Source of the DNA: an uncultured delta proteobacterium
GTDB lineage: Bacteria; Desulfobacterota; Binatia; Binatales; Binataceae
Length of the DNA: 64,000 nucleotides
Direction: 5' to 3'
Assembly: GCA_963806485.1 (NCBI GenBank)
Contig: CAWDXY010000004.1
Coordinates: 893,349 to 957,348 of the forward strand
Position numbers and translations under genes: made by a program. Positions 1 through 28,053 of the stretch are shown here, in pieces. The notes beneath the pieces were generated by a model. It was given only the letters and a program-made list of their open reading frames with translations. It ran no database searches and was not told the origin of the DNA. Position 1 is the stretch's first letter; each line of letters starts with the position of its first letter.

Positions 1-12
1 AAACGGGAGAAA

Positions 13-834
13 TTGGCAGCGGTATTGTTTGCCGCCGTGATGGTGCTCGCGCTGGCCGCGTCGGCGGGCGCGGTGGACGGCACAATCGAGATCAACCAGG
101 CGAAGGTACTCGCGGCAGGCGGGTTTCCTTTCTCCGTATCTACGGGCGGAAGCTACCGCCTCACCAGCAACCTCACAGTTTCGAGTGAGAGTTGTACCGG
201 CGGACTTACGACCGGGAACGACATCACCATCGATTTGAACGGATTCTCGATGATCGGGCCAGGCTGCGGCGCCGGAATTAGTGTGGGAAACGGCGTTACG
301 GTGGAAAACGGGACGGTCACCGGATTCTCCATCGGAGTTGAGGTGCAAAACAACGGCATCGTCAGAAACGTACATGCCGATGCGAACGGACAAGGCATCT
401 CTGTCGGGAACAACTCCGTGGTCGAAGGGTGCACGGTAAACAACTCCACCAACCATATCACCGACAGTGTGGGATTGGAGGGCGGCACCGGGAGTACGAT
501 CTCAGGCAATACTGTAAACGGCAACCCGCAATTCGGAATTGAGTGCGCGTCCTGCACCATTTCCGGCAATACTGTGGGCGGCAACGGTATATTCGGCATC
601 ATAGCGACCGGAAGTCAGATCTTCGGCAATGCACTTGTCGGCAATTCCGGCACGGCCATCAATTGCTCGAGCGGATGTCTGATTTCCGGCAATGCCGTTT
701 CCGGCAGCTCTATTGGCATCTCCGCAGAGGGTGATGCAACCACTGGCTACGGGGGGAATGTTCTGAACAATACCACGAACCACTCCGGCGGCACCTCGCT
801 CGGCAACAATCTATGCAGCGGAACCGTTTGTTGA
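13..834 (+). CDS. secreted right-handed parallel beta-helix repeat protein (signal peptide; repeated ISGN/VGGN-type beta-helix rungs); TTG start with GGGAGA RBS, true start may lie upstream of window
   Basis: Hydrophobic N-terminus MAAVLFAAVMVLALAASAGA; periodic G-N-x-V/I motifs (ISGNTVNGN, ISGNTVGGN, ISGNAVSGS) typical of pectate-lyase-like beta-helix. Confidence 0.6.
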   Translation: MAAVLFAAVMVLALAASAGAVDGTIEINQAKVLAAGGFPFSVSTGGSYRLTSNLTVSSESCTGGLTTGNDITIDLNGFSMIGPGCGAGISVGNGVTVENGTVTGFSIGVEVQNNGIVRNVHADANGQGISVGNNSVVEGCTVNNSTNHITDSVGLEGGTGSTISGNTVNGNPQFGIECASCTISGNTVGGNGIFGIIATGSQIFGNALVGNSGTAINCSSGCLISGNAVSGSSIGISAEGDATTGYGGNVLNNTTNHSGGTSLGNNLCSGTVC

Positions 835-852
835 GGATCGCGGAGGTACGAA

Positions 853-2949
853 ATGCGCTCTAACGGAAAAACTCGACAGTTGGCATCCGCGCGCCGCAAG
901 CTCGGCCGGTTTGCCGCAAGTATCCTCGTGATCCTGGTGGCGGCCTTCGGGATAAGCATCGCGCACCACGGGATGCTCTCCGGTCCGGCGTCGGCCATCG
1001 CGTCGGGTCCAACCGCATTGAGCATGATTTGCGTCTCGCCCGACATCACCGTGGCGCTGACCAGCGGAACCGTCACGCCGCAGCAGGCGCAATGCTACTC
1101 GTTTCCATCCGGTAGCGCGGCGACCAGCTTCGCCGGAATCCCGGCGGGGGTGAACGTGACCGGATTTTTGCCTGTGAGTCCGACGCAGATCCTGCTGACG
1201 ATCGACATCACGGCGGCGCTGCCCATCAACGGCACAGGCGGGACCGTAACCGTAACTCCGCACGATGTCGCGTCGTACAACCCGGCCAGCGGCTTTTTCT
1301 CGCCGACGCTCTTCTTCGCGGGCATCAGCAACGGAGTTCCCGACGGGACTAGAATCGATGCGATCGGGAAGGACGGCTCGGGAAATCTACTGCTGTCCTT
1401 CGACGTTACCATCAGCGTGCCCAAGTCCGGAGGCGGAACACTAACCGTCAAGCCGGCCGATTTGGTCTCGTTCAATGGCGCGGCATATACGCTGGTGTTC
1501 GACAGCGCCGCGGCCGGCATCCCGGACGGGATGAACCTCGACGGGGCGACGATGCTGCCCAATGGCGATCTGCTGATGGCATTCGACCTGTTCGGCTCGA
1601 TCGACGGCGTTGATTTCACGCCGGCGGACGTTCTGGAGTTCAATCCTGGGGAGAGCAGTTGGGTGCTGTCATTGAGTGGCGCAGCCGTGGACGATTGGCC
1701 CGATGGCAGCATCTTTCATGGCGTGTACGCACAGGCGGCGGCATCCCCGACCCCGACCGCTACTGCAACGGCGACTGCGACCGCGACGAACACTCCGACT
1801 GCCACCGTGACTCAGACGGCGACCTCAACCGCGACCGCGACCAATACGGCGACCGCAACTGCGACGAACACGGCTACTGCCACAGCGACAGTTACAGCCA
1901 CGCCGACCGCCACCGCATCCGCGACGGCAACAACAACCACGACGGCCACCGCAACGGCCACTGAAACGGCCACGCCGACGGCGACGTCGACTACTTCGAT
2001 GACCGTGACCGCATCGCTTGCGTTCGGCAATGTTGCTGTTGGGCAGACGGTTACGAAGACTCTGACGGTCCATAACACCGGGACGACTCATTCGCTAGTT
2101 ATTTCGGCCGCTACGGTGTCCGACTCTGAATACGTCCTAAGCGGCAGCGGGACATGCGGCGCGATCCCAGTGACGCTCACGCACGGCACATCGTGTACAC
2201 TAGGAGTGGCATTCAGCCCCAACGCAACTGGCGCGCATGGCGCATCGCTTGCGGTCTTCGACAACGCCACCACCGGCCCGCAGCATGTGGCGCTCAGCGG
2301 CACCGGAATCGCGGGCCTGACCACGACGAAAAGCAGCTTGGTGTTTGGTGACGTAAAGTTCGGCCTGAAGGGACTCGAGTCCTTCAGTGTGAGGAATCAT
2401 CAAACCCAGCAAGTCAGCCTCAGCGAAAGCTTCAGCGGGACGAATGCTGCCGACTTCTCCGTTACTGGCGGTACGTGCACCACGACTCTGGCAGCCAGCT
2501 CGTCGTGCTCGATAATCGTGTCGTTCTCGCCGAGCGTGTTGGGAACGGAATCAGCGGCGCTGTCGGTCTCCGACAGTCCCGACCCGCTGCGTCCTTACCC
2601 GGTTTCGCTCACCACTGGGCCGACGATCCCGGTGACCGTAACGCCGACCACGCTGGCGTACGGCACGCTGACCTCCAGAACATCGCCGAAGACCAAGGAC
2701 GTAACGGTAGCGAATCTGTCGGGATCCTCGTTATCGGTGAGCGAGAGTTTCAGCGGGACGAACGCAAGCGACTTCGCGGTGACGGGCGGGACCTGCGGGG
2801 CTTCCGCGCTACCACATTCAGCGTGCACGATAACGGTGACGTTCACACCCACGGTCGGACCAACGCCAGAGAGCGCGAGCATGACGGTGACTATCGGCAG
2901 CGATCCAACCAGCCCACATAACATCAGCCTGACGGGGACTGGGCCGTGA
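853..2949 (+). CDS. secreted/membrane-anchored repeat protein: N-terminal domain, Thr/Ala/Pro-rich linker, tandem choice-of-anchor-D (ASH-like) domains at C-terminus
   Basis: N-terminal TM/signal segment FAASILVILVAAFGISIA; linker TATATATATNTPTAT...; C-terminal units FGNVAVGQTVTKTLTVHNTGTTHSLVIS...SGSGTCG...SCTLGVAFSPNATG repeated 3x, the pattern of choice-of-anchor D domains. Confidence 0.75.
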   Translation: MRSNGKTRQLASARRKLGRFAASILVILVAAFGISIAHHGMLSGPASAIASGPTALSMICVSPDITVALTSGTVTPQQAQCYSFPSGSAATSFAGIPAGVNVTGFLPVSPTQILLTIDITAALPINGTGGTVTVTPHDVASYNPASGFFSPTLFFAGISNGVPDGTRIDAIGKDGSGNLLLSFDVTISVPKSGGGTLTVKPADLVSFNGAAYTLVFDSAAAGIPDGMNLDGATMLPNGDLLMAFDLFGSIDGVDFTPADVLEFNPGESSWVLSLSGAAVDDWPDGSIFHGVYAQAAASPTPTATATATATATNTPTATVTQTATSTATATNTATATATNTATATATVTATPTATASATATTTTTATATATETATPTATSTTSMTVTASLAFGNVAVGQTVTKTLTVHNTGTTHSLVISAATVSDSEYVLSGSGTCGAIPVTLTHGTSCTLGVAFSPNATGAHGASLAVFDNATTGPQHVALSGTGIAGLTTTKSSLVFGDVKFGLKGLESFSVRNHQTQQVSLSESFSGTNAADFSVTGGTCTTTLAASSSCSIIVSFSPSVLGTESAALSVSDSPDPLRPYPVSLTTGPTIPVTVTPTTLAYGTLTSRTSPKTKDVTVANLSGSSLSVSESFSGTNASDFAVTGGTCGASALPHSACTITVTFTPTVGPTPESASMTVTIGSDPTSPHNISLTGTGP
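1741..2002 (+). repeat. low-complexity (ACN/GCN)n tract encoding Thr/Ala/Pro linker
   Basis: acggcgaccgcgacc-type codon repeats visible directly; produces spurious antisense AVAV ORFs. Confidence 0.8.
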
Positions 2950-2982
2950 GCTGGTAGCTAGCGGACAATCTCGATGACGAAA

Positions 2983-3025
2983 CCGCCGGAGCGAATCGAT
3001 CGCTCCGGCGGTTCAATTTCATTTC
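2983..3025 (+). terminator. rho-independent terminator downstream of the 853..2949 gene
   Basis: Perfect 11-bp stem ccgccggagcg / cgctccggcgg with 7-nt loop aatcgat followed by TTCAATTTCATTTC. Confidence 0.6.
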
Positions 3026-3039
3026 GCGACAAAGCCGCA

Positions 3040-3150
3040 TCTGAATCAACAGCCGCGGATCCGATCGCTTTTTGAGTTCTCGTCGCTGAAACGGAGTTCA
3101 ACAAAGCGTCGGCGAGATTGCCAAGGTCCCGATGTTCGCCAATTGTCGGA
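3040..3150 (-). pseudogene. tyrosine integrase C-terminal fragment (remnant), homologous to the 3' end of the integrase at 7047..8285
   Basis: Minus-strand translation ...EHRDLGNLADALLNSVSATRTQKAIGSAAVDSDAAL aligns with integrase C-terminus ...SESDVADRLADHVLNFPSATRTQKPIESVSSAIAS; shared DNA core TGAGTTCTCGTCGC(T/C)GAA at 3073-3092 and 7086-7105. Confidence 0.5.
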
Positions 3151-3362
3151 AATCAAAGCTCAAATCGATAAGGCATCCGACGAACGTTTCGAAATGAACC
3201 GTCGTGTCGGCGGCACCGTCGCTGATTGAGGCTTCAAAACTGTGTGCTCGCCAAGCAAGGTCATCGCGACGAGGGGAGCGTGATGCTCGCCGCCGGGATA
3301 GCTATCGTGCGCCTTCGTGCGCTATCAGAGGGGCAGGGCTATACTTCGCCAGCTGAAACGGT

Positions 3363-6300
3363 TTGGGGGAACGATCCATGCTTTGCGCGAGCTGTGGCTC
3401 CGATAATCCGCAGGCAAACAGATTCTGCCTCGAATGCGGGGCCGCGTTACTGGTCCGCTGTGCCAAGTGCGGCGGCGAAATCCCGCCCCGCGCCAAGTTC
3501 TGTGGAGCATGCGGAGAACCGCTCGAGGCTAAGGTCAAGTCGGCGGGTGCGGCCGAGCCCCCGCATATCGAGGCCAGCGAGCTGATCGAGGGCGAGAGTA
3601 AGATCGTCACGGCGGTCTTCGCCGATATCAGAGGCTCTACCGAACTCTCGGAACACCTCGATCCCGAAGAGGCCGCACGCTGATCGATCCCGCCTTAAAG
3701 CTTATGATCGAGGCCGTCCACCGATACGAGGGCTACGTGGTGCAATCAGCCGGTGACGGCATATTTGCTCTTTTCGGTGCGCCCACCGCCGCCGAAGACT
3801 ATCCCCAGCGCGCACTGTAGGCCGCGCTGGCCATGCAAAATTCCATCAAGGCGTATGCAGCGCGCCTCCGCGCAGAGGGAAGGGTTCCAATAGAACTCCG
3901 CGTTGGAGCACATGCAGGCGAGGTGGTCATGCGGGCGGTAAAGACCGATGAGAATCGCACTGAATACACCGCCATCGGCCATGCGGCGAACCTCGCCGCG
4001 AGAATGCAGCCGCTCGCTCCAATCGGATCGATCGCGGTAACCGAGCATCTGCGTCGCCTCGGTGAAGGCTATTTTCAATTCCGCGCGATGGGAGAGGCAC
4101 ACGTCAAAGGTGTCACCGATCCCGTCAACGTTTACGAGGTTAGCGGCCTCGGTCAGTTACGAACGCGATTGCAAATCGCCGCAGAGCGCGGATTGACGAA
4201 GTTCACCGGCCGACAGGGCGAGATCGAGCAGATTCGCCGGCTCCTGGACCTGGTCAAGTCGGGACGTGGTCAGATCCTCGCCGCGGTCGGCGAACCCGGC
4301 ATCGGCAAATCACGCTTGTTCTTCGAGTTCAAAGCCATCGTGCCGAAAGACGCGATGGTACTTGAGACTGTCGCCGTCTCACATGGCAAGGTATCGGCCT
4401 ATCTGCCGGTGATCGAATTGCTGCGTTCATACTTCGGCATTTCCGACGAAGACGACCGGCACATGCGGAGCGAGAAGATCAACGATAAGATCCTCACGCT
4501 GGACCGCACGCTCGAAGGCACCATACCTTCCCTTCTCAGCCTTCTCGGCCTCGGCGGCGACGAACCACTTGAGCAGACACAAGGAGGGAGCGGTTTGCTC
4601 GATCCTGCAGAACCAGAGACTCGCAAACGGCGGATCGTCGATGCGATCAAACGGATCATACTGCGCGAAAGTCTCAACCAGCCGATGGTCATAATTTTCG
4701 AGGACTTGCACTGGATCGACGGCGAGACACAGAGGTTTCTTGACCTGTTAACCGATTCGATTGGCTCGGCGAAAGTTCTGCTGCTGGTAAATTGTCGCCC
4801 CCAGTACACGCACGGCTGGAGTAACAGAAGCTACTACACGCAGTTGAGGCTCGATCAGTTAGGCGCAGCGACCGCGGACGCGATTCTCTCAACGATGCTG
4901 GGTGAGGGGAGGGACTTGCCACCTCTCAAAGAGCTGATCATCGAGAAGACCGAGGGCAACCCGTTCTTCATAGAAGAGATTGTGCAGAACCTGTTCGCGG
5001 AGGGTGCGCTGGTCAGGAACGGAGTGGTAAAGCTCGCCCGCTCGATGAGCACGATTCAAATTCCTGAAACGGTTCAGGGACTTCTCGCCTCGCGAATCGA
5101 TCGGCTTCCCGCCACCGAGAAAGACCTTCTTCAGACTATGGCGGTCGTTGGCAGACAGTCGCCGCTCGAGCTGCTGAGAAAGGTGACTGGAAAATCCGAC
5201 CCCGAGCTCGAGCAATCGCTCCATGCTTTGCAAATAGCTGAGTTCGTTTACGAGCAGCCCGCCCTGCCGGAGGCGGAGTACATATTCAAACATGCACTGA
5301 CGCAGGAGGTAGCGTACAACTCGGTACTGATCGAACGACGCAAACTGCTTCACGAACGGATCGGGGCAATCATCGAGACGCTCTACGAAAAACAATTGGC
5401 GGACCACGCGGATGAACTTGCGTACCATTATGAGCGAAGCGCGAATAAGGAGAAGGAGATCGACTCCCAGTTTTACGCTGGAACGGTGGCCCTGGAGCGG
5501 TCCGGGTATGCGCAAGCGGTTGCCTACTTGACGAACGCACTGCGACTTCTGGAGAACTCGTCGAGAGACCCCATGGCAAAAGAAGACTGTCGATTTGAGA
5601 TTCTGTGCAATCTCGGGGTTTCGCAATCGCTCAACGGTGACCCAAAGTCAGCGAACCGATCGTATTATGCCGCTGCCGAAATCGCAAAGAAACGTGGTGA
5701 CCCGAAGCGGCTTGTAAAGGCTGCGGTGGCGTTGCAGCATTATCCGATCAGCGGAGAGACGGACGTAGAGGCAGAGGCGACGATCGCTCTCCAGGAGGAG
5801 GCTCTGAACCGAATCGGGAGCGAGGACAGCGTGGACAAAGCGCATGCGATGGGGGCGCTCGCCTTGTCTCTCACGTTGGCGCAAGAACGCGGCCGCGCTC
5901 GAACTCTAGCGAGGGAATCAATAGCGATAGCCCGTCGCGTTGGCGACCGAGACGGTTTGCTGAAGATCCTTCCCTACCCTATCGTTGCATTTAACAACCT
6001 GCGCGATCCTGGTCCAGAAGCCATTCAGGAAAGGATTGCGCTCACGCTGGAGGCGCAGCACTTGGCTGACGACCTCAAAGATGAAGGTGGAGCCCTTGGC
6101 TCAACCCTGGACCTGTTTGACGTGTTTCAGGAACAGGGCGATATGCAGTCAGCGAGTGCGCAGCTCGCGCGCCTTGTGCGACTTGTCGAGTCGTCTGCCA
6201 CTCCGCGAGTAAAATATCCCTTGACTAGAGCGAAGGCGCAGCTGGCATTGATGAGCGGCCGCTTCAACGAAGGCCAGCAGCTGGCTCTCGAAGCCCAAGC

Positions 6301-6997
6301 GCTCGGCCAGCAAGCGCATCTTCTGGGCGCATCTGAGGTGCTGGCGGTTCAAGTTGCAATCACTTACCTGGAAAAGGGGACCTCGGAGATACCTGGAACC
6401 TCGGAGATGCTGGAGAGCGGGTTCAAGGTCTACGTCCAGGCGCACCCGGAGGTAACATTTGCCCGCTGCGTTTTGGCCAATTTGTACGCGGAGTAGGGTC
6501 GCAGAGAGCAAGCGGAGAGCGAGTTCGAATCACTCGCCCGGAACGATTTTCGTGATCTTCCTAGATTGAGAGAATGGCTCCTAGGAATTGCGCTGCTCGC
6601 GCGGGTTTGCGACTTCCTGGGAGATTCAAAGTGCGCTTCGATTTTGTACGAGCTGATAGAGCCCTATAAACGACGTAATGTAGTCGCCTCGTACTTGGGG
6701 GTGAGTCTTGGCTCGGTTGACCTGTATCTCGGTTCGCTCGCGGCTACGATGTCGCGGTTCGAAGAAGCGCGCGCACACTTCGACGCTGCACTGGAATTCA
6801 ACTCAAAAATCGGCGCGTTACCGGCAGTGGCGCGAACTCAGTACGAGTATGCTCGAATGCTGCTGAAGTGTGCGCGCGAGGGCGATCGCGATCACGCTCA
6901 CCAGCTCCTCGCCGCTGCCCACGAGATCGCTGAGCGGCTCGGTATGAAGAAAATCAGCGAGAATGCGCAGGCGTTGCTGTCAGAAGCGCAGAATTGA
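3363..6997 (+). pseudogene. large signalling protein (zinc-ribbon / class III adenylate-guanylate cyclase / AAA+ ATPase / TPR) disrupted by one frameshift (~3660-3683) and two in-frame TAG codons (3827-3829, 6494-6496)
   Basis: 3363 ORF has CxxC..CxxC ribbon then cyclase start TAVFADIRGSTELSE; frame shifts to ...IEAVHRYEGYVVQSAGDGIFALFGAPTAAEDYPQRAL*AALAMQ (cyclase core) continuing into the 3833..6496 AAA-TPR ORF (GEPGIGKS Walker A). After TAG at 6494 the same frame continues GRREQAESEFESLARNDFRDLPRLREWLLGIALL into the 6566..6997 ORF. Confidence 0.55.
3833..6496 (+). CDS. longest intact segment of the above: AAA+ ATPase - TPR signalling protein (may be expressed alone from internal Met)
   Basis: Walker A GEPGIGKSRL, long alpha-helical TPR-like C-terminal region; in frame with upstream cyclase fragment and downstream 6566..6997. 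Confidence 0.5.
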   Translation: MQNSIKAYAARLRAEGRVPIELRVGAHAGEVVMRAVKTDENRTEYTAIGHAANLAARMQPLAPIGSIAVTEHLRRLGEGYFQFRAMGEAHVKGVTDPVNVYEVSGLGQLRTRLQIAAERGLTKFTGRQGEIEQIRRLLDLVKSGRGQILAAVGEPGIGKSRLFFEFKAIVPKDAMVLETVAVSHGKVSAYLPVIELLRSYFGISDEDDRHMRSEKINDKILTLDRTLEGTIPSLLSLLGLGGDEPLEQTQGGSGLLDPAEPETRKRRIVDAIKRIILRESLNQPMVIIFEDLHWIDGETQRFLDLLTDSIGSAKVLLLVNCRPQYTHGWSNRSYYTQLRLDQLGAATADAILSTMLGEGRDLPPLKELIIEKTEGNPFFIEEIVQNLFAEGALVRNGVVKLARSMSTIQIPETVQGLLASRIDRLPATEKDLLQTMAVVGRQSPLELLRKVTGKSDPELEQSLHALQIAEFVYEQPALPEAEYIFKHALTQEVAYNSVLIERRKLLHERIGAIIETLYEKQLADHADELAYHYERSANKEKEIDSQFYAGTVALERSGYAQAVAYLTNALRLLENSSRDPMAKEDCRFEILCNLGVSQSLNGDPKSANRSYYAAAEIAKKRGDPKRLVKAAVALQHYPISGETDVEAEATIALQEEALNRIGSEDSVDKAHAMGALALSLTLAQERGRARTLARESIAIARRVGDRDGLLKILPYPIVAFNNLRDPGPEAIQERIALTLEAQHLADDLKDEGGALGSTLDLFDVFQEQGDMQSASAQLARLVRLVESSATPRVKYPLTRAKAQLALMSGRFNEGQQLALEAQALGQQAHLLGASEVLAVQVAITYLEKGTSEIPGTSEMLESGFKVYVQAHPEVTFARCVLANLYAE

Positions 6998-7046
6998 TTC
7001 TGTGGAGCCGGTGTACAGCAGCAGCCGTCGAACAGCCTGACTCGAA

Positions 7047-8285
7047 CTATGACGCAATTGCGCTAGATACGGACTCGATCGGCTTCTGAGTTCTCGTCGC
7101 CGAAGGAAAATTCAATACATGATCGGCGAGCCTATCTGCGACATCGCTCTCTGAATGCTTCAGGAAATGCGAGTACACAAGAAGCGTGATTGCCGGATTG
7201 GCGTGACCGAGCCGATGCTGCACCTCGGTGATAGGAGCACCACTAGCAATCATGGCCGAAGCGCAACTATGACGAAGGGTATGGAAGGTTACACGGCGTA
7301 ACTTCGCTCGCGAAAGGGCAGGGTAAAATTGGGTCTGGAGCATCTTAGCGCGGGGCATGGGCCTCCCGTCCGCTCCCGGAAATACCAATCCATCCTGCGA
7401 GATCGGACACTGAAGTTTCCAACGCTTGAGCTCCGCGACCAGCAGAGCAGGAATTGAGATCGTTCGGCGGCCTGCTTTGGTTTTCGGTGGAAAGTAGCGC
7501 GGGCGAATTTCCTCGCCCTGCGGCCGCGCCCAGGACAGACTGCGGCGGATCACCATTTTGCCGGAGCCCTCCTTGGGCAGCTCGAGGTCGGTCCAGCGCA
7601 ACGCAAGCAATTCCCCTTCTCTAGCTCCGGTTAAATACGCGGTCTCGAAAAGGGTCCGCTCGAAACCCGGCTTCGCCTCCTGCAACAGAGCTTGAATCTC
7701 TTTCGGGCTCAAGACGCTGTCGGGATCGACGGCGTCTGTACCGGTTCCAAACGTCACATCGTCCGTTTTCAGTTCTCTCGCCGGCTGCACCGCGCGCTCG
7801 ACGCTGTCGACCGGATTCTTGAAGTACTGGCCGCGTTTGATTGCGAGCCGAAACACAGCGCTGACGATCCAGAGAATCCGGTTGATCGTCCGATGCGCGT
7901 ATTGCTCATCGCGCAGCTTGTCTCGAAGCTTCTCCACCGCCTCAACCGTGATCCGATCGAGCTTTTCCTTCCCGAAGACAGGCAGGATCTGTTTGTTAAG
8001 GCGGGTTCGGAAATCGAAGATGTGCGAAGGTCTGCGATCCAGTTTGCTCCTGAACCAATCCTCGGCAACGTCGCCGAAGGTCGGCACTTTTGCGGGCTCG
8101 ACGTAGTCGCCGCGCGAAGCTTTTTGGACGGTCTCGATCTGGAACTGCTCGGGTTGTTTGCGCGTTTTGAAACGGACGCGCCTGCGCGGTCCGAACAGGC
8201 CAAGAGGGCGATAGTCGAGCACCCAGAGGCAGCTACAATCCTTGCCCGAGCAGCTGGCGACGTGGAATTTCCTAATGCTTGCCAT
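7047..8285 (-). CDS. int: tyrosine-type site-specific recombinase / phage integrase
   Basis: C-terminal catalytic region HTLRHSCASAMIASGAPITEVQHRLGHANPAITLLVYSHF (R-H-R-Y family box II signature); N-terminal SAM-like domain. Confidence 0.9.
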   Translation of the reverse strand: MASIRKFHVASCSGKDCSCLWVLDYRPLGLFGPRRRVRFKTRKQPEQFQIETVQKASRGDYVEPAKVPTFGDVAEDWFRSKLDRRPSHIFDFRTRLNKQILPVFGKEKLDRITVEAVEKLRDKLRDEQYAHRTINRILWIVSAVFRLAIKRGQYFKNPVDSVERAVQPARELKTDDVTFGTGTDAVDPDSVLSPKEIQALLQEAKPGFERTLFETAYLTGAREGELLALRWTDLELPKEGSGKMVIRRSLSWARPQGEEIRPRYFPPKTKAGRRTISIPALLVAELKRWKLQCPISQDGLVFPGADGRPMPRAKMLQTQFYPALSRAKLRRVTFHTLRHSCASAMIASGAPITEVQHRLGHANPAITLLVYSHFLKHSESDVADRLADHVLNFPSATRTQKPIESVSSAIAS

Positions 8286-8412
8286 CGCGCATCTTCAGGC
8301 CGACACGACTAGCGTGATGTCGCGACCGACATCCACTCTCCCGGAATGGCAAGAAAATGGCTCATTTACCTTCGCCGGCGTGGGCCTTGAGCAAGCGCAC
8401 GTTCGACGTCGC

Positions 8413-8712
8413 TCAATCTGAAGCGGACGTATTTACCGACCTGACGCTTGGTATTCGACCCAGCCGCTCTTCGGTGCGTACCCAGGACTCGGGCAGATTG
8501 AGATGCCTGGCAAGCTCACCGGCGTTCACGAGGTTCTGCGCGAGATCGGGTTTAGTGGCTTGTTCGTTTGCCTTCGCCGTGGTCTCGGCTAGCCAGCGTG
8601 AAGCCAGGAGAAGTAGAAGACCCGGAATCTGATCGAGCGAGATACGAGCGGCCCATTCAATGAGCACCGGATCGTTCTGCGGAATTGTGTTGCCCTCCGC
8701 CACCGCTACCAA
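8413..8712 (-). CDS. putative excisionase / AlpA-type helix-turn-helix DNA-binding protein
   Basis: Small ORF immediately upstream of int on same strand; HTH-like segment NAGELARHLNLPESWVRTEERLGRIP. Confidence 0.4.
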   Translation of the reverse strand: MVAVAEGNTIPQNDPVLIEWAARISLDQIPGLLLLLASRWLAETTAKANEQATKPDLAQNLVNAGELARHLNLPESWVRTEERLGRIPSVRSVNTSASD

Positions 8713-8736
8713 CCTTCACCGCCAAGAAAAACTTGT

Positions 8737-10005
8737 TCAGCCCGATTCTTCCTCACCCTTCTCCGCAATCACTTCAGCCTTCTTTCCGGTCAGTCTCTCC
8801 CCTCGCGAGATCGCCACGTCGACAAAGCGCGGCTCCAGCTCGATCGCAAAGCAGCGGCGCCCGAGCTGCTCGGCAGCGATGAGTTGCGATCCGCTGCCGC
8901 TGAAAGGTTCGTAACAGAGATCGTCGGGACGGGTGTGCAACTCCATCGGAATCGTAAAGAGCCGGTTCGGCTTCGAGGTAGGATGCTCGCTGCTCTCCAC
9001 CTCGGCGTTCGTGACCTGCCAGACCGTGCCGGGATTGCCATATTTGCGGTCGACCCCGGGCTTCTGACCTTTGATCCAACCGAAGAGGCAGGGCTCGTGC
9101 GCCCACATATAGACTGAGTAAGTTAAAACGGGTCGGCTTTTGAACCAGACGATCTGCTGATGATTGAAAGCCCCGACTTCGTTCCAGACGCCCTCAAGCA
9201 TCGCCTGCCGGGCCGACGCGTGCCAACAATACCAGGCCGCGTTGGGTGCGATCTCGCGTTCGATCGCAACTTTGTAAAAAGCGAGATAGAACGAGCGGCC
9301 GCCATCGCTGCCGCCGTCCTCGTTGTCGAAAGTTGTTTGGCCAGCTTCGTGGTAGACCTTCGACCAGTCCTTGTCGCGGTTGGCTTTGGCCCGGTTCGGG
9401 CGGGTCGCTGGATGCGAGCCGCCAGCGTAGCCGACCGCATACGGCGGATCAGTCGCGAACAGGACCGCCCGCTCATCGCCCATCAAGCGTGAAACGCATT
9501 CCGGTCGCGTGGAATCGCCACACGTGAGCCGATGCTTGCCCAATTGCCAGGTCTGGCCTAAACGCGCCACAGGGCTTGCCGGTGTCGCGGGAATGGCGTC
9601 CTGTGGGGCGTCCTCGCCCAAGGCGAGGCATCTGAGTTCCTTGGGATCGAACGCGGTCAGCTCAGCGAGCGCGCCCAATTCGCTTATCTCCAGCTTGAAT
9701 AATTCATCGTCCCAGCGGGCTTCTTCGCCTGCGCGGTTGTCGGCGATGCGATACGTGCGGCATTGGGCCTCATTTAAATCGGCAGCGACGTGCACCGGGA
9801 CCTCGAGCAAGCCGAGCTTACGTGCTGCGAGCAGTCGGCGATGACCCACCACGATAACGCCGGCGGCATCGACGACGATGGGCTGGCGCCAGCCAAATTC
9901 CTTGATGCTCGCCGCGACCTTGTCGATCGCTGACTGCGGAATCTTGCGCGGGTTCTTCGCGTACGGAAGCGGCCGGTCGATCGGCCAAAGCTCGACTTCC
10001 ATCAT
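8737..10005 (-). CDS. ParB-like nuclease domain fused to DNA N4/N6-methyltransferase (phage-type orphan methylase)
   Basis: N-terminal ParB motif VVGHRRLLAARKLG; methyltransferase motif IV LFATDPPYAVGY and C-terminal SAM motif EPFSGSGSQLIAAEQLGRRCFAIE. Confidence 0.8.
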   Translation of the reverse strand: MMEVELWPIDRPLPYAKNPRKIPQSAIDKVAASIKEFGWRQPIVVDAAGVIVVGHRRLLAARKLGLLEVPVHVAADLNEAQCRTYRIADNRAGEEARWDDELFKLEISELGALAELTAFDPKELRCLALGEDAPQDAIPATPASPVARLGQTWQLGKHRLTCGDSTRPECVSRLMGDERAVLFATDPPYAVGYAGGSHPATRPNRAKANRDKDWSKVYHEAGQTTFDNEDGGSDGGRSFYLAFYKVAIEREIAPNAAWYCWHASARQAMLEGVWNEVGAFNHQQIVWFKSRPVLTYSVYMWAHEPCLFGWIKGQKPGVDRKYGNPGTVWQVTNAEVESSEHPTSKPNRLFTIPMELHTRPDDLCYEPFSGSGSQLIAAEQLGRRCFAIELEPRFVDVAISRGERLTGKKAEVIAEKGEEESG

Positions 10006-10493
10006 GATGCCGTATCCTCCTCCTCTTCATCGTCGAGCAGGTCCGAAAAGAGACTGCCTTGCGCGGGGTTGAGCGACTTCACTTTGCTGCGAGAGGCCGG
10101 CGAGCAGCCGAATTCCACCTCGATCTGGTGCATCGCTTTCGAGCACATCGACATCGCGCTTAGATACGGATTGATGTACGGATTGCCGACGCCGTTGGCT
10201 TTCACTACCAGGCCGCTCTGCTTGATCGCGCGCGCGGCCTCGGCGCGCGTCGAGTACCAGAAACACCAAGTTCCGAACATGGTCAGGTCGAGCCGGGTCA
10301 AAAGGCCCGCCTCGATAAATCGCCTACCCTCGAGAGACCACGCGTGCTTACCGGTGTCGTCGAGAAAATCGGGCGCTCGCGGCATCCGCTTCAGGAGCGG
10401 ACTTTCAGGCTCGTCTTGATTTAGTGGCCGCCGGCTGCCGCGCATGATCTTCAGCGTTGCCGGCGTCGGTCTGCGCCCCCTCATCTGCCCCAC
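10002..10493 (-). CDS. phage terminase small subunit, P27 family
   Basis: N-terminus MGQMRGRRPTPATLKIMRGSRRPLNQDEP matches the P27 terS signature (G-R-P-xP-xxLK-xxG...RPLN); stop overlaps the methylase start. Confidence 0.75.
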   Translation of the reverse strand: MGQMRGRRPTPATLKIMRGSRRPLNQDEPESPLLKRMPRAPDFLDDTGKHAWSLEGRRFIEAGLLTRLDLTMFGTWCFWYSTRAEAARAIKQSGLVVKANGVGNPYINPYLSAMSMCSKAMHQIEVEFGCSPASRSKVKSLNPAQGSLFSDLLDDEEEEDTAS

Positions 10494-10950
10494 CTCGATC
10501 CCATCACCACTTCAGACCCCCCCACCTCTATGAATTTCGTGCACGCGTGCGTGTGGCTGCCATGCGGTCAACGCTCGGCCGATCGTAGAGATTTGATCCC
10601 CTATCCGGTCCACGCGCGATCGCTCAACCATCACAGCGAATCTAGATCGTTCAGAGCCTTTCCCATCGAAACAAGGCCGATAGGATCCCCACAAAACTGA
10701 AATGCGATCGACTCGGCCGGACGAGTTCAACGTTCGTAGCTTCACGATTGCCGCCCGTCCTCACGACAACTTCCTGCTCATAGCTCTCCGGTCCTCCAAG
10801 GTCCGCTGTGCTTTCATAGTCTCCGCGTCGGGCGATTGACCCTCTCGCGCAACGACCTGCAGCGCACCCTTTCTCGCCCCAGTTCGGTTCTCCCTGGTGA
10901 CTCCCTCTCCGTTTGTGTGTCCATTTCCATTTTGATTTTCAGTATTTCTT

Positions 10951-11526
10951 TCAGGTCTCCAGATCTCCATTCTCAGTCTCTATGCTTCGAAGGGGCTCCG
11001 AAGTCACATCTGACTTAAAGTACTCGGCGACTTGGTAGCGCTCGCCGTACATCTCAAGCAGTCGGTCGAAGAACGGCAAAGGGCGCAACTTCTCCATCTC
11101 CCGCCAAACCCAGGTTATGTTCTTGTCCTTCCGATCGAGCCGCTCCCCGATCTGAAACCGAGCCATGTTCAACACGAGGACAACTTCGCTCTCGTGCTCG
11201 TAATCACAAAATTCAATCGCGGAGAGGTTCGCGATGCCGCTTCGGACTTGTTCGATCGTCAAGCCGGTTTCGTGAGCAACGGTCGGCAGTGGTAAGTAGT
11301 ACAGCCCCAGCGGGTGAGCGCCCGGGCCTGATATCAGGTATAGCGCGAGCACTTGGCACTCCAATCCGAGCCGACGGATCTGCCTGCCGGTAGTTCCGTA
11401 CGAGAAGCCGGGCCTCAACTTGGCAAATTTCCTCATACGATCACCCTTCCCGACGATCGCGCGTCGAGACGAGGCGGAAATTCGCTTTCGACAATGGAGT
11501 CTTGCTCGGGGGGCGACCCCTGTCAT
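10951..11526 (-). CDS. hypothetical protein in integrative element (true start probably internal Met near 11436)
   Basis: ORF in lower-GC island DNA, no recognisable motifs. Confidence 0.35.
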   Translation of the reverse strand: MTGVAPRARLHCRKRISASSRRAIVGKGDRMRKFAKLRPGFSYGTTGRQIRRLGLECQVLALYLISGPGAHPLGLYYLPLPTVAHETGLTIEQVRSGIANLSAIEFCDYEHESEVVLVLNMARFQIGERLDRKDKNITWVWREMEKLRPLPFFDRLLEMYGERYQVAEYFKSDVTSEPLRSIETENGDLET

Positions 11527-11653
11527 TCCGCATTGAAACTACGAGTTCCATGTAGATCAGGTATAAGCAACGATCGTCTTTGGGTCATCGGGTGCAGCAC
11601 AACTTTGCACCCGCCCCAACCGTCCAAGTCTCTGAAAAGACTAGACTAAATGT

Positions 11654-12505
11654 TCAGTCGTGTTTGTAGTTGTTGAGCTCGATTAGATCGGCTTTTGTGA
11701 TCCAGATGGGTCGAAAAGTGACATCGACGTCTTTCAAATCGATACTTGCGGGGACGGTCCACATTTTGGTCTCATCCAAGGTTGGCTCCAATGAGCCGGG
11801 GCTTCGATGATTCTGCCCACGGCGCCTATACCATTCAGCAATCGCCAGCAGTCTGCGCATTGTCTGTCGGCTCAATTCACCTGACCTCGAGTCGCGGCCG
11901 TGGTCGTCTCTCAATACGGTGAATGCGGCATACAAGTGACAGACCGGCTTGAACTTGGCCCACGCGTCCTCAATCGATCGAAGAGACAACGGTACATCGA
12001 CCTTTGGTTCTCCGTTCGGCGCCAACACATGCCTTCGTAGTTTTGCGATCGCTAAGTGTCGACCTTTCTTCAACGTCGCAAGTGCCGGAACCATATCGGC
12101 GAGCCGGATTAGAAGCGCGAGGATCTGGCCCGCTATAAGCCCTTTGCCAAAATTCGTCAGTCCCTCGTCGGCCAAGCTCTCCGCCGTGAGTTGAGAAGGA
12201 AGTGAGACATAGAGAAGTCGGTCTAACTCCGAGAGGGACATTCCGGACTCGCTGAATCGCGACATCTGTAGGTCCCACTTTTCAAGGGCAATCTCATCGT
12301 GAGGCGGCTGCTTTCGGATTGCTTCAACAAGCTGAAGCACGAGGTGGCGACGCTTCTTCGAATCAGACGGGAACATCATCGTTCCGAGAAGTTCTGAGTA
12401 ATCGACGAGTTCCGCGATCCGGCCGTTGTGTATTAATCCAATGCAGGGCATTCTCGGCAGACCAAAGGCATTCGGTGCGTTGGTAGCGATATCAGTACTG
12501 CCCAA
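11654..12505 (-). CDS. hypothetical protein, cargo gene at distal end of integrative element
   Basis: 283-aa ORF in locally AT-richer DNA, no recognisable motifs. Confidence 0.4.
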   Translation of the reverse strand: MGSTDIATNAPNAFGLPRMPCIGLIHNGRIAELVDYSELLGTMMFPSDSKKRRHLVLQLVEAIRKQPPHDEIALEKWDLQMSRFSESGMSLSELDRLLYVSLPSQLTAESLADEGLTNFGKGLIAGQILALLIRLADMVPALATLKKGRHLAIAKLRRHVLAPNGEPKVDVPLSLRSIEDAWAKFKPVCHLYAAFTVLRDDHGRDSRSGELSRQTMRRLLAIAEWYRRRGQNHRSPGSLEPTLDETKMWTVPASIDLKDVDVTFRPIWITKADLIELNNYKHD

Positions 12506-12753
12506 GTTGTCTGCTTACAAGCTGGAGCAGCCAACGGAGATTTTCCTTCGCGCTTGGTCCTCCGACACTTCGTAGACACAACAGCCGAGGAATCCGCACA
12601 CTATGGTCGACGATTCAGAGGCCACCAGTTCGGCTATCTGGTGCAGGGCAAAGACTCGGACGAGTGTCGGCAATCACGGCGAGGTTGCGCGCGATAAGGC
12701 GCGCTGGGGGGTGCGCAGTGTTTGCGGCGCTCGCTCGGCGCTGTCCTATTCGC

Positions 12754-15486
12754 TCAAGGCCCTGTCCCCGTGAGGCTGATGCTATACGGGCTGCTGGGAT
12801 CGCTGCCTATCGTCACCGCCATGGTGGCGCTTTCGGGCGTGCCGCCGGCCGTCGGTGTGAAGGTCACCGCTATCGTGCACGACGAGTTAGGCAATACCGT
12901 ACCTCCGCACGTGCCGCCGGTCGCCGCGAAGTCGGTCGCGTTCGGTCCGCTGGTGCTGCTCTCACCCACCGATAGCGCGAATCCCGACTTGTTGGTGACA
13001 GTCACGTCCCTGGTCTTCGGCGACGTCCTAGCGGTCAGGGTGCCATACGCCAGCGTGAGCGGCGCGACCGTCGCTGGAATCGTCGCCCCGGTGCTGAGCG
13101 CCACGGTGTACGGACTCAGCGGATCGGGACTGTCTGCGACCGTCAGCGTCGCTGATTCTGAGCCCAGGGCACCCGGCATGAAGGTCACGTAGATCGAGCA
13201 TTCGGTTTTGGCGGCCAGCGTTCCAGTGCAGGTACCGCCGGTGATCGAGAAGTCAGACGCGTTGGTCCCGCTGAAGCTCTCGCTCAGCGTTACCGGCTGG
13301 GTTTGATGATTGACCACGCCGAAGGCCTCGACCTCCTTAAGGCCGAACTGGACCTCGCCGAACGCCAGGCTGCTCTTCGTGGTTGTCAGATCCGCGATGC
13401 CGGTGCCGCTGAGCGCCACGTGTTGCGGGCTGGTAGCGGCGTTGTCGCTAATCGCAAGCGATGCACCATGCGCACCGACCGCGTTGGGCGTGAATGCGAT
13501 TCCCAGCCCGCAATTTGTCCTGGGCGCGACCGTTACGGGAATCGCACCGCATGTCCCTCCTCCCGTAAGGGAATATTCAGAGTCGGACGGTGTCCCGCTC
13601 GAGATGACCAGCGAATGGGTCCTGCCGGTGTTGTAGACCGTCACATTCTTCGCGACCGTCTGACCGACTGCAACGTTGCCGAACGCGCGCGATGCAGTCA
13701 CGGACATCGAGGTAGTCGGCGTCGCGGTCGGGGTTGCAGTTACCGTAGCTGAGACAGTCGCCGTCGCAGTCTGAGTGACCGTGACCGTTGCGGTCGGAGT
13801 TGCTGTTGCAGTCGCAGTCGCCGTAGACGTATCGGTCGCGGTCGCCGTGTTCGTCGCGGTCGCGGTTGCCGTATCGGTCGCCGTGGACGTGTCGGTCGCG
13901 GTGGCCGTGGCAGTCGAGGTTGCTGTTGCGGTCGCAGTTGCAGTTGCGGTGGCCGTTGAAGTTGCCGTCGCCGTAGCTGTCGCAGTCGGTGTTGCCGTTG
14001 CGGTAGTGGTCAAAGTCGGGGTTGCTGTCGCCGTCGCCAGAACGCCGCCATATTCGAACGCGCCGATGTCGCAGGCGTTGTATCCGGGCGCCGGGCGCGC
14101 TGCGCCGCGTTGGTCGGTGGCCGGACAATCGGCAGTCGGGATCGCCGCTATCGCATAGCTGCCCAACTCAAGGGCGATCGTCTGGGTCGGCCCGCCGTTA
14201 TACGCCGGCCCGCCGACGAGCCCCACATCGCTGTAGCTGACGTTATCGCCGATTGTATCGCCGTTGGCGCCCGTGCTGTTTCCAAAGCCGCACCCGGCAT
14301 CGTCGGAAATGTTGTACCCCCCGTTGCTGATGGTGCCACCATTTTCCGTGCTGCAGTTTCCCTCGCCGTTGCCGGCGACCATCGAGTTGGCGACCGTTAG
14401 CGTCCCGAGGCTGCTGGTGCTCGTGATTGCCCCGCTGGCGAAGAGCCCATTGCTACTGTTGCCGACGATGGTGCAGTTGGTAACGGTCACTGCGCCGGAA
14501 CCGTTTTCGAGGATGGCACCGCCGACGCCTCCTTGGGTCGCGCCGTTGCCTACCAAGGTGCTGTTGGTGACTGTGACCGTCCCGCCGCTGTCAAAGATTC
14601 CGCCGCCCCCGTCGCTCTCCTCCGCGCCGTTGCCGTAGAGAGTGCTGCTGGTGACGATCAGAGTGCCGCCGTTAGCGATGGCGCCACCGACGCCTCCGGA
14701 AGTGCTGTTGCCGGAGAGAGTGCTGTTGGTAATGGTCAGCATGCCGCCGTTGCCAATGGCTCCGCCGCCTCCTTGATCCGCCCTGTTGTTGGTGAGAGTG
14801 CTGTTGGTGACGGTCAGCGTGCCGCCGTTAACAATGGCTCCGCCGCCACCGGCGCCGCTGCCGTTGGATGTGCCGTTGCCGGAGAGAGTGCTGTTGGTGA
14901 CGGTCAGCGTTCCGAGGTTATAAATGGCTCCGCCGTTGGACGAGCCCAAGGCGTTGTTGTCGGAGATAGTGCTGTTGGTAAGGGTCAGCGTGCCTTGGTT
15001 AAAGATGCCGCCGCCCTCGTCGGCGACGCTGCAAAGTCCGCCCCCACTGCCGTGGGCGATAGTCAGGTTATTGAGGTTGAGCGTTGCGCTCGAGTTCTCC
15101 ACCACCAGCACCTGAAAAGACTCTCCGCAGGGCAATTGAAACTCCGCCCCGTTCCCACTAATTGTTACGGTCTGGCCGCTCCCATCAATCGTCAGATTGT
15201 TCTGGATCGCGGGAAGTGTGCTGCCCAGCGTAATCGTGCCGTTGACGCTGAACATGATGGTATCGGTGCCGGTGCCCGCGGCGCATCCGTTCACGGCGGC
15301 CTTAGTGTTGGCTGCGGTGATCGCGTCGCGCAGGGCGCAAACTCCCGCCGAGCCTGGGTCAGCCGTCGTGTTGACGATTATAGGTCCGCTCTGCGCTTGC
15401 GAGACCGCCAAAGCCGCGAGCAAACCAGTAGCCAGCAGCGCCAGAGCAACGAACGCAGCGCGCAGTGGTTTTGTTTGTGAATTCAC
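12754..15486 (-). CDS. secreted beta-helix repeat protein with Thr/Ala/Pro linker and C-terminal tandem choice-of-anchor-D domains (paralog of 853..2949 C-terminus)
   Basis: Signal peptide MNSQTKPLRAAFVALALLATGLLAALAVSQA; beta-helix rungs GTLTVTNSTLSGN repeated; C-terminal ~330 aa ~75 percent identical to C-terminus of the 853 protein. Confidence 0.8.
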   Translation of the reverse strand: MNSQTKPLRAAFVALALLATGLLAALAVSQAQSGPIIVNTTADPGSAGVCALRDAITAANTKAAVNGCAAGTGTDTIMFSVNGTITLGSTLPAIQNNLTIDGSGQTVTISGNGAEFQLPCGESFQVLVVENSSATLNLNNLTIAHGSGGGLCSVADEGGGIFNQGTLTLTNSTISDNNALGSSNGGAIYNLGTLTVTNSTLSGNGTSNGSGAGGGGAIVNGGTLTVTNSTLTNNRADQGGGGAIGNGGMLTITNSTLSGNSTSGGVGGAIANGGTLIVTSSTLYGNGAEESDGGGGIFDSGGTVTVTNSTLVGNGATQGGVGGAILENGSGAVTVTNCTIVGNSSNGLFASGAITSTSSLGTLTVANSMVAGNGEGNCSTENGGTISNGGYNISDDAGCGFGNSTGANGDTIGDNVSYSDVGLVGGPAYNGGPTQTIALELGSYAIAAIPTADCPATDQRGAARPAPGYNACDIGAFEYGGVLATATATPTLTTTATATPTATATATATSTATATATATATATSTATATATDTSTATDTATATATNTATATDTSTATATATATPTATVTVTQTATATVSATVTATPTATPTTSMSVTASRAFGNVAVGQTVAKNVTVYNTGRTHSLVISSGTPSDSEYSLTGGGTCGAIPVTVAPRTNCGLGIAFTPNAVGAHGASLAISDNAATSPQHVALSGTGIADLTTTKSSLAFGEVQFGLKEVEAFGVVNHQTQPVTLSESFSGTNASDFSITGGTCTGTLAAKTECSIYVTFMPGALGSESATLTVADSPDPLSPYTVALSTGATIPATVAPLTLAYGTLTARTSPKTRDVTVTNKSGFALSVGESSTSGPNATDFAATGGTCGGTVLPNSSCTIAVTFTPTAGGTPESATMAVTIGSDPSSPYSISLTGTGP
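13746..14064 (-). repeat. low-complexity Thr/Ala codon repeat tract (linker)
   Basis: gtcgcggtcgcc-type repeats; antisense AVAV ORF 13775..14158 is an artefact. Confidence 0.8.
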
Positions 15487-16608: not shown

Positions 16609-17943
16609 TCACTCTATATGGTATCGCTTCCGTTTACGCCAGAGCGTGGGGATGCTTATGCCAAGGGTGGCGGCCGCGTCCTCAAGAGTTGGAGCGACCG
16701 CCAACACCCGCTTGATGTGCTCTTCCTCAAGTTCCTCGAGGCTTGAATCCGCTGATACCTGGATCGGCCGTTGTGTGCTCGGCGCAAAGAGCACGTCAGA
16801 GAGATCTTCCTTGCGTATGACCGTGCCACGACTTAGAACGACCGCGCGCTCCACCACGTTGCGGAGCTCTCTGATGTTCCCTGGCCACGAATATGGGATC
16901 AGGGCCTTCCTGGCCTCTTCTGAGAAATGGAGATCAGAACGGCGATTTCGCGCAGCCGCCTCGGACAATAGCTTCTCGGCTAACGGCAAGATGTCTTCGG
17001 GGTGCTCGCGTAACGCGGGCACCCGGAGGCTAATCACGTTGAGCCGGTAATACAGGTCAGCTCGGAAGCGACCGGCGGCGATTTCCTGTTGCAGATCGCG
17101 ATTAGTGGCAGCGATGACGCGTGTGTCAACTGAAATCGTCTCTTGCCCTCCGATCCTCTCGAAACATCCGTCCTGTAAGAAACGAAGGAATTTTGTCTGA
17201 AGAGATAGCGACAGTTCCGCGAGCTCGTCAAGAAAAAGCGTGCCCTTATTCGCCGCTTCGAGCCGACCGGGCTTGTCCTTGATCGCGCCCGTGAAAGACC
17301 CTTTCATGTGGCCGAACAGTTCGCTTTCCAGCAGATGTTCCGAAAGCGTGGTGCAATTCACAGTGACAAAAGGGTGCTGGTGTCGAGGGCTCCATCCATG
17401 TATCTGACGAGCGAGTACATTCTTGCCAGTACCGCTCTCGCCCGTGAGCAGAATACTCGCTTCGCTGGCAGCCGCTGTGAACGTGACTTCGATCAGCTCA
17501 CGAAATCGAGAGCTGGCGGAAGCCAGCAACGGAACGCCATCGATTGAGTCGCGCAGCGCACGATTTTGAGCGCGCAACTCCTTGACCTCGAGAGCGCGCT
17601 CAACTGCGTGCTGCACCTGATCGAGGGAAAAAGGTTTGGTGAAATAGTCGTGTGCGCCCGCCTTCATCGCCGCGACAGCGTTATCGATGGTGCCGTAGGC
17701 GGTCATGAGAATCACAACCGTGTCGGGAAACTTCTGTTTGATGGTCTTGAGCAGCTCGAGGCCATTCATCTCGGCCATTCGCCAATCGCTCAATACCAAA
17801 TCGAAGTCACCGCACTTCGACATTAGATCCAGCGCCTGACGACCGCTGTCCGCCGTGGCCACCTTGTAGTTGCATGACTCAAGGAATCTGGCGACCCCCT
17901 GCCTGATGTTCTTTTCGTCGTCGACGATGAGCAGCTTAGCCAT
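16609..17943 (-). CDS. sigma-54-dependent response regulator (NtrC family: receiver + AAA+ sigma-54 activator + Fis-type HTH)
   Basis: Receiver motifs VDDE, LVLSDWRM, ILMTAYG, FTKPF; Walker A GESGTGKN; GSFTGA (GAFTGA variant); C-terminal HTH. Confidence 0.9.
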   Translation of the reverse strand: MAKLLIVDDEKNIRQGVARFLESCNYKVATADSGRQALDLMSKCGDFDLVLSDWRMAEMNGLELLKTIKQKFPDTVVILMTAYGTIDNAVAAMKAGAHDYFTKPFSLDQVQHAVERALEVKELRAQNRALRDSIDGVPLLASASSRFRELIEVTFTAAASEASILLTGESGTGKNVLARQIHGWSPRHQHPFVTVNCTTLSEHLLESELFGHMKGSFTGAIKDKPGRLEAANKGTLFLDELAELSLSLQTKFLRFLQDGCFERIGGQETISVDTRVIAATNRDLQQEIAAGRFRADLYYRLNVISLRVPALREHPEDILPLAEKLLSEAAARNRRSDLHFSEEARKALIPYSWPGNIRELRNVVERAVVLSRGTVIRKEDLSDVLFAPSTQRPIQVSADSSLEELEEEHIKRVLAVAPTLEDAAATLGISIPTLWRKRKRYHIE

Positions 17944-20070: not shown

Positions 20071-20090
20071 GGCTTCCTCGCAAGAGATCT

Positions 20091-22247: not shown

Positions 22248-22318
22248 TTTTGTTCTCCAAATTTCCTCGATCTATGAGCTTATGGGCTCCTTCGAACTTT
22301 CCTCTCCGTCGCAATGAC

Positions 22319-25796: not shown

Positions 25797-25826
25797 CGCT
25801 TTTCTTATCCTCGAATGGAACCGTCC

Positions 25827-27992: not shown

Positions 27993-28053
27993 TATCGAGT
28001 CCTTAATGAGTCAATCGCGGATAAACGTGTCAGGCTCTAAGAGCTGGATCTAG

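Follow-up and report, generated by a model that had tools for sequence, protein, structure and literature searches.

Here, we analyze a 64-kb stretch of DNA (hereafter, the window; positions 893,349 to 957,348 of contig CAWDXY010000004.1) from an uncultured delta proteobacterium of the Binataceae, in which a 3′ remnant of a tyrosine integrase gene, dInt1, lies about 4 kb from an intact member of the same integrase family, int2. We show that dInt1 is a genuine integrase remnant and that the integration site at which it lies has been used repeatedly. The best reading of the locus as a whole, and one that we consider probable, is integration, decay and re-integration, i.e., the region is the scar of elements that inserted and then decayed. 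In this history, an 18-mer common to dInt1 and int2 would have reached both by descent rather than as a recombination core.

A repeatedly used integration site

dInt1 lies on the minus strand at positions 3040 to 3135 and comprises approximately the last 28 codons (∼95 nt) of a family integrase. The intact int2 (7047 to 8285, minus strand) encodes a protein of 412 residues with the catalytic domain and the N-terminal SAM-like/core-binding domains of a tyrosine recombinase of the phage integrase type (Pfam Phage_integrase, Phage_int_M and SAM_3, i.e., PF00589 with E = 6e-21, PF22022 and PF14659), and it matches PHROG 1, annotated as integrase, with E = 2e-67. We found 424 homologs of int2, the closest of which is 90% identical; the hosts are Binataceae-type metagenome-assembled genomes (MAGs), and homologs were also present in soil metagenomes. 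For a survey of the family, 64 loci were gathered (L001 to L064) and 45 unique integrase 3′ ends were aligned.

Several lines of evidence show that dInt1 derives from this family. First, positions 3051 to 3119 on the minus strand encode a peptide, …LADALLNSVSATRTQKAIGSAAV…, that tblastn aligns with int2 residues 385 to 407. Second, at the DNA level, positions 3056 to 3116 and 7070 to 7130 are 74% identical over 61 nt. Third, dInt1 is 80 to 88.5% identical over ∼61 to 65 nt to integrase 3′ ends from other genomes, the best of these matches having E = 1e-14 (88.5%, 61 nt). Because integrase 3′ ends from other genomes match dInt1 better than int2 does, the stub is genuine and not a chance match. 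A sequence-only reading of this DNA had recognized the remnant, and in this it was right; the extent that it gave, ∼35 residues, is reduced here to ∼28 codons with residues 385 to 407 matched. The stub consists only of the tail past the catalytic domain and contains no catalytic residues of its own. Compared with L001, dInt1 has an internal deletion of ∼48 nt, which took out the last codons together with the stop codon and the start of the sequence that follows it. In annotations, the stub is best entered as a fragment of an integrase pseudogene and as the mark of an old site of integration.

That this site has been used more than once is evident from relatives of the locus. A terminator-like hairpin with a perfect 14-bp stem at positions 2981 to 3013, downstream of an Ig-like gene (853 to 2949), is unique in the window and serves as a landmark of the integration site. 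The hairpin is kept beside an integrase or a remnant in L001 and L003, and is also present in the integrase-free L065. In L001, an intact family integrase occupies the same junction next to the same hairpin. In L003, a remnant of 135 codons (residues 278 to 412) lies beside the hairpin with an intact integrase and an AAA gene upstream. In L065, homology to the window stops at position 3030, providing partial evidence for an empty site on the left flank. These three relatives bear out the earlier suggestion that the remnant marks a previous integration at a hotspot. Moreover, the tail of dInt1 is closer to that of the L051 integrase (76% identity) than to that of the L003 remnant (63%) and, therefore, the site has been used by different members of the family.

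The same pattern is seen at other sites. Flanks are shared between an intact integrase and a remnant in L002 versus L053, and in L015 versus L009 and L033, in which the remnants are cut at different points. In L008, which has an intact integrase, and L011, which has a remnant, the flanks are 90 to 92% identical while the integrase parts are 82% identical, and these are, therefore, independent insertions. In total, we identified >15 independent truncated copies, none of which is cut by a contig end and all of which keep the 3′ end of the gene; they start at residues 37, 81, 106, 159, 238, 242, 278, 299, 305, 326, 334, 346, 357, 365 and 385. No genuine 5′ integrase fragment was present in any of the fetched loci (L001 to L064). 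It is generally the case that, when an integrase gene lies at the edge of an element with its 3′ end facing outward, internal deletions leave 3′ stubs. Accordingly, stubs consisting only of 3′ ends are expected in this family if its integrases have this position and orientation and deletions are confined to dispensable element DNA.

The 18-mer shared by dInt1 and int2

The two copies of the 18-mer lie at positions 3073 to 3090 (TGAGTTCTCGTCGCTGAA, plus strand), where the coding strand gives SATRTQ(K), and at positions 7087 to 7104 (TGAGTTCTCGTCGCCGAA, plus strand), which is 40 to 57 nt inside the 3′ end of the int2 open reading frame (ORF). They are identical at 17 of 18 positions with an exact run of 14 nt and can be written as TGAGTTCTCGTCGC[T/C]GAA. 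The sequence-only reading had described a 19/20 match with the second copy at 7086 to 7105; the strings that it quoted are 18 nt long, and the match was overstated. It had also interpreted this short block within diverged arms as an attachment (att) site core, with attP overlapping the 3′ end of int2, in which case the two copies would be products of the attL/attR type. The idea is not without appeal: the stub and int2 loci share no longer exact match than that in the 18-mer, no other part of the tail is as well conserved across all three codon positions, and att repeats inside integrase gene ends elsewhere would provide a precedent, e.g., in the Dehalococcoides ssrA islands (PMC3146451). Nevertheless, the data described below largely refute it, and we regard it as highly improbable.

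The conservation of the 18-mer is a property of the family. Among the 45 aligned tails, the block at −51 to −34 from the stop codon is the best-conserved part, and conservation falls to background within ∼5 nt past the stop codon. Upstream of residue ∼375, codon periodicity is of the usual kind; past the catalytic Tyr, the tail drifts near-neutrally except in the 18-mer block, which by per-column entropy is conserved at all three codon positions. Of 316 tail pairs from family integrases at different loci with 65 to 80% identity, 34% have an exact run of ≥14 nt in common; 75% of these runs fall on this block, and a 14-nt run is, therefore, unremarkable in this family. The 14-mer common to the two copies occurs in other loci inside integrase tails only. 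The stub itself shares exact runs of 23 nt with the integrases of L002 and L051 and of 14 nt with the neighboring int2; thus, its block is matched better by foreign integrases than by int2.

The surroundings of the block point in the same direction. Similarity extends to both sides of the 18-mer, as is to be expected of homologous gene fragments and not of a switch between P and B arms. If crossover took place in the block, the last 13 codons would be derived from the target and differ between sites. In fact, there is no such difference: integrases in unrelated flanks are homologous through the block and across the following 40 nt to the stop codon (positions 7044 to 7046 in the window). In both L003 and L005, the best repeats between integrase and remnant lie at or after the stop codon instead of at the 18-mer block; in L003, the block is ∼75% identical between the two copies, and a 17-nt exact match is found at the stop codon. 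Finally, allowing up to three mismatches, the 18-mer occurs at only these two places in the window, with no copy at the far end of the element and, specifically, no third copy near 12.5 kb, where a search for one had been suggested.

Because the 18-mer is conserved family-wide, it is an inherited piece of the gene and not a footprint of recombination between the two copies. From the alignments, we conclude that it represents a conserved block of the C-terminal tail (SATRTQK) and not an att core. It is, therefore, unfit as an att core for delimiting the island. A different role can be imagined for the tail block (CGAGAACTCA…GATCG), which may double as a cis-acting DNA site, e.g., an arm-type integrase-binding site. 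Together with the motif CGGCTGY described below, it could then turn 3′ stubs into landing pads for new family members and allow the cis-mobilization of stub-flanked cargo. We consider this unlikely; the idea stems from the conservation of the block at all three codon positions while the remainder of the tail drifts near-neutrally. If it were true, the widespread 3′ stubs would not be inert, and the cargo could include genes such as the STAND-type cyclase gene.

Junctions, neighboring elements and the order of events

A post-stop sequence, TTCGAGTnAGGnnGTTCGACG(ACG)GCTGC, which we refer to as type A, is common to int2, L001 and L041/L047; the resemblance among these three ends immediately behind CGGCTGC. 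The stub reads …GATCGGATCCG followed by CGGCTGT and then TGATTCAGATGCGGC…, and after CGGCTGT it is homologous to the flank of L001. The L001 flank, in turn, reads CGGCTGC followed by TACTGGTCAGGACGCGGCC… and runs on into the hairpin. Because the stub/flank junction matches the junction in L001, the stub lies at the exact position of the intact L001 integrase. These comparisons place the element/chromosome junction of the int2 subtype ∼37 nt past the stop codon, at CGGCTGY. We infer that CGGCTGY, downstream of the stop codon, is also the actual crossover site for the type-A subtype.

Exactly three copies of the extended motif CA[AG]CAGCCG (CGGCTGYTG in reverse complement) are present in the 64 kb, all of them on the plus strand. 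Copy (a) at 3047 to 3055 (CAACAGCCG, the reverse complement of CGGCTGTTG) is located where dInt1 meets the chromosomal flank, and the homology to the L001 flank starts right after it. Copy (b) at 7019 to 7027 (CAGCAGCCG) follows the stop codon of int2 by ∼20 to 28 nt and is separated by 22 nt from that of a cyclase pseudogene. Copy (c) at 12579 to 12587 (CAACAGCCG) is intergenic and located at the far end of a phage-like element. Copy (c) matches positions 3047 to 3063 at 17/18, which was equaled in 1 of 100 shuffles. The occurrence of the motif in all three zones had p = 0.002 under a Markov model and p = 0.006 with random real zones, with the zones picked after inspection. The proposal of an integrase tail ahead of each junction was dropped; in L003, positions 1697 to 1999 turned out to be an internal piece of a different integrase.

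The DNA between copies (a) and (b) is occupied largely by a pseudogene (3363 to 6997, plus strand; Pfam) for a protein with a double zinc ribbon, an adenylate/guanylate cyclase domain, AAA_16 and TPR, which is convergent with int2. The earlier observation that these 4 kb carry a disrupted cyclase-AAA-TPR gene was confirmed: a frame map against the intact homolog in L002 placed a single frameshift near 3674 and two in-frame stop codons, one near 3818 and the other near 6494. The same lesions are present in the independent assemblies L067 and L072, which represent the same or a 97%-identical strain. In L068 and L069, an ortholog of the cyclase unit alone (window positions 3306 to 6998) is 78% identical and has other neighbors and no integrase; the homology to L068 stops at 6998, and L068 is free of integrase beyond the cyclase stop codon, which, like L065 on the left flank, is partial evidence for an empty site. 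The differing neighbors in L068 are compatible with the cyclase gene being cargo.

Between copies (b) and (c) lies a phage-like mini-element of 5.5 kb, which we refer to as E2 (7028 to 12578, minus strand; Pfam and PHROGs). Besides int2, E2 comprises a small ORF (8413 to 8712), which is a candidate Xis gene, a fusion of ParB_N with an N6_N4 DNA methylase, a small terminase of the P27 family, a DnaD-like helicase loader (phrog_1701) and an orphan of 283 residues. Window positions 7044 to 10612 are 82% identical to L004 at the DNA level. E2 contains neither structural genes, consistent with either a satellite-like element or a degraded prophage, nor genes for conjugation or mobilization. Compositionally, the signal is weak, with a GC content of 0.53 to 0.62 in the island and 0.60 to 0.64 in the flanks. 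A stretch at 12570 to 12708, …CCAGATAGCCGAACTGGTGGCC…, is conserved and occurs twice in L004, at 238 to 314 and 4086 to 4173.

A strain variant, L072 (ENA ERZ25039605 contig_121734), separates the two sides of the locus. It is 97.2% identical to window positions 1 to 6789, contains an identical copy of dInt1, and breaks away within the cyclase 3′ end; past 6789, it carries genes for a pyruvate kinase, a Usp protein and a PAS-histidine kinase, and int2 is absent from the next 3.7 kb. This divergence reflects either a strain-level rearrangement or a large deletion. Because L072 has the stub and diverges before int2, the stub predates whatever happened on the E2 side.

We suggest the following order of events. 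An element encoding a type-A integrase would have integrated just past the terminator hairpin of the Ig-like gene (853 to 2949) with the 3′ end of its integrase gene toward the hairpin. Later, deletions inside this first element would have left only the ∼28 last integrase codons, i.e., the stub at 3040 to 3135. A second relative, consisting of int2 and its 5.5-kb element (7028 to 12578), is still intact and lies at a distance of 4 kb, directly against the cyclase pseudogene at its 3′ end. The three copies of the motif suggest a tandem array of two units that, in the direction of int2, would run as chromosome, core, E2 (12578 to 7028), core, E1 (7018 to 3056), core and hairpin. E1 would be the decayed unit, holding the cyclase pseudogene and the stub between att-like copies, followed by the intact E2. 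We infer both this order of events and the array itself.

The same architecture is seen more clearly in L005, in which an intact integrase is succeeded by metabolic genes over 6.4 kb and then by a stub of ∼100 nt, and a 140-nt direct repeat starts from each stop codon. The L005 repeat (11236 to 11379 and 17616 to 17759) is ∼90% identical and adjoins a cyclase-AAA_16 gene; the genes in the 6.4 kb encode transglutaminase-like, DUF2064, GT2 and radical SAM/SPASM proteins. In L003, the AAA ATPase gene between the intact integrase and the 135-codon remnant (11270 to 12397; phrog_33861, E = 2e-54) could be cargo or of a defense type. L010 has a geometry unlike that of the other loci: a 48-nt direct repeat (90% identity; 9773 to 9820 and 18055 to 18102) brackets an integrase stub and 8 kb including a cyclase-AAA-TPR gene, and a 63-nt inverted repeat (97%; 9880 to 9942 and 10310 to 10249) brackets the stub.

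Several observations weigh against integration, decay and re-integration as set out above. The candidate core has just 9 nt and the test zones were set post hoc, while copies (a) and (c) share a further 8 nt that the model does not predict. Beyond the 9-mer, the far end of E2 does not significantly repeat the flank of int2; local alignments of the int2/cyclase spacer with this end were no better than those of shuffled sequences. Likewise, a search for far-end att sites in L001, L002 and L004 by 10-mers and local alignment gave marginal matches only, that in L002 being equaled in 8 of 100 shuffles. The two matches to positions 12570 to 12708, which lie just outside the predicted far end of E2, are 74% identical and located upstream of the L004 element, and could mean that E2 extends further. 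The cyclase gene, for its part, might be chromosomal and not cargo of a decayed element. We found no attP, no circular form and no clean empty site that corresponds to the entire island, and the search for attP in viral contigs yielded relatives in IMG/VR at just 24 to 29%.

An alternative explanation is that of two unrelated events, namely an old scar at the terminator of the Ig-like gene and, separately, the integration of int2 and E2 behind a cyclase gene of the chromosome, at its 3′ end. In that case, there would be no array, and the three copies of CARCAGCCG would in part be coincidence. Family members do often lie directly against a cyclase or TPR gene at its 3′ end (L002, L053, L005 and L009), the cyclase unit at 3306 to 6998 has the 78% ortholog without an integrase in L068, L065 too has a STAND-type AAA_16-TPR gene downstream of its Ig-like ortholog, and the support for the 9-nt motif amounts to only p ∼0.002 to 0.006. 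However, the copies of the motif in the 64 kb coincide, without exception, with the three predicted junctions, and all are on one strand. Moreover, the neighbors of the cyclase gene in L068 are unlike those in the window and, thus, the unit is not fixed in the chromosome, while the succession of integrase, cargo and remnant recurs in L003 and L005. On balance, we consider two unrelated events to be a less probable explanation, and prefer integration, decay and re-integration.

If the tandem array is correct, it makes explicit predictions. The empty site is expected to read …TTCAGATGCGGC (reverse complement)…CAACAGCCG…AGGAATCCGC…, and attP is expected to consist of the int stop codon, TTCGAGT…TTCGACGGCTGY and then the far-end arm (TGTGTCTACGAAG… in the case of E2). 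Positions 3047, 7019 and 12579 provide concrete candidate coordinates for excision.

The integrase family and known systems

The loci described here provide a first outline of the behavior of one integrase family in uncultured Binatia. The flanks of its members are varied and include the terminator of the Ig-like gene, TPR/cyclase genes, an AAA gene, and genes for DUF924, MFS_3, carbamoyltransferase and VOC-like proteins. The 3′ end of the cyclase-AAA-TPR gene as a single target of the family was rejected since the flanks are too diverse. In the window, ARAGORN detected no tRNA or tmRNA within the 64 kb, and Rfam gave no credible match to a known RNA between positions 2900 and 13000. As a first sketch, family integrases are arranged tail-to-tail with host genes, which they meet at the 3′ end or the terminator, with the junction a few tens of bases past the stop codon; their sites are reused, and the integrases decay into 3′ stubs.

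The window also contains other repeats. A ∼3.4-kb sequence is repeated at 19214 to 22618 and 24943 to 28353 with a spacing of 5.7 kb and 71 to 76% identity, forming a tandem paralogous gene cluster. The Ig-like gene beside the hairpin (853 to 2949) belongs to a multicopy “choice-of-anchor D”/ASH-Ig family with further members at 12754 to 15486, ∼36.3 to 37.6 kb, ∼46.2 to 48.5 kb and ∼55.6 to 57.2 kb. This family has Thr/Ala-rich coding repeats of 12 to 18 nt and beta-helix repeats, and two of its members converge on the island from either side. At 42993 to 45438, 11 copies of a coding repeat of ∼225 nt probably encode a repeat protein of the beta-propeller type.

Among known systems, the closest in organization are islands in which integrative elements accrete in tandem and some units, referred to as CIMEs, have decayed between att copies, e.g., the islands related to ICESt1/ICESt3 of Streptococcus thermophilus (PMC5704250). 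There, as in the history proposed here, integration is site specific, a resident element decays with loss of its integrase and a related element joins at a copy of the att site, giving collinear units in one orientation at one hotspot. Of the features of a CIME, the window displays an integrase cut to ∼28 codons and an intact related unit that adjoins it in the same orientation, while the flanking att copies are 9-nt candidates only. It differs from CIME accretion in that the decayed unit retains a 3′ integrase stub, in that the att repeats are at best 9-nt candidates, in that the host is known from an uncultured Binatia-type MAG, and in the absence of conjugation or mobilization genes, the intact unit being phage-like or satellite-like.

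A second parallel is provided by the tandem genomic islands at ssrA in Dehalococcoides, in which a direct repeat is embedded in the end of the integrase gene (PMC3146451). There, as would be the case in the window, several islands share one site in a tandem arrangement, their integration module lies at the edge proximal to the target, the att repeat lies near or overlaps the end of the recombinase gene, and the integration module contains a ParB-like gene. By contrast, the Dehalococcoides islands depend on a recombinase of the serine type and on one essential target gene, and their repeat of 20 bp originates from tmRNA, whereas the window and its relatives have a tyrosine integrase, diverse targets at the 3′ ends and terminators of protein genes, and a junction past the stop codon.

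More generally, an integrase fragment at the edge of a degraded prophage or genomic island is a standard marker of an old integration. From such fragments, dInt1 does not differ in any essential way; what the present family adds is the count of >15 stubs of the 3′ end versus none of the 5′ end. Altogether, the structure is of a known kind and would not surprise a specialist in mobile elements.

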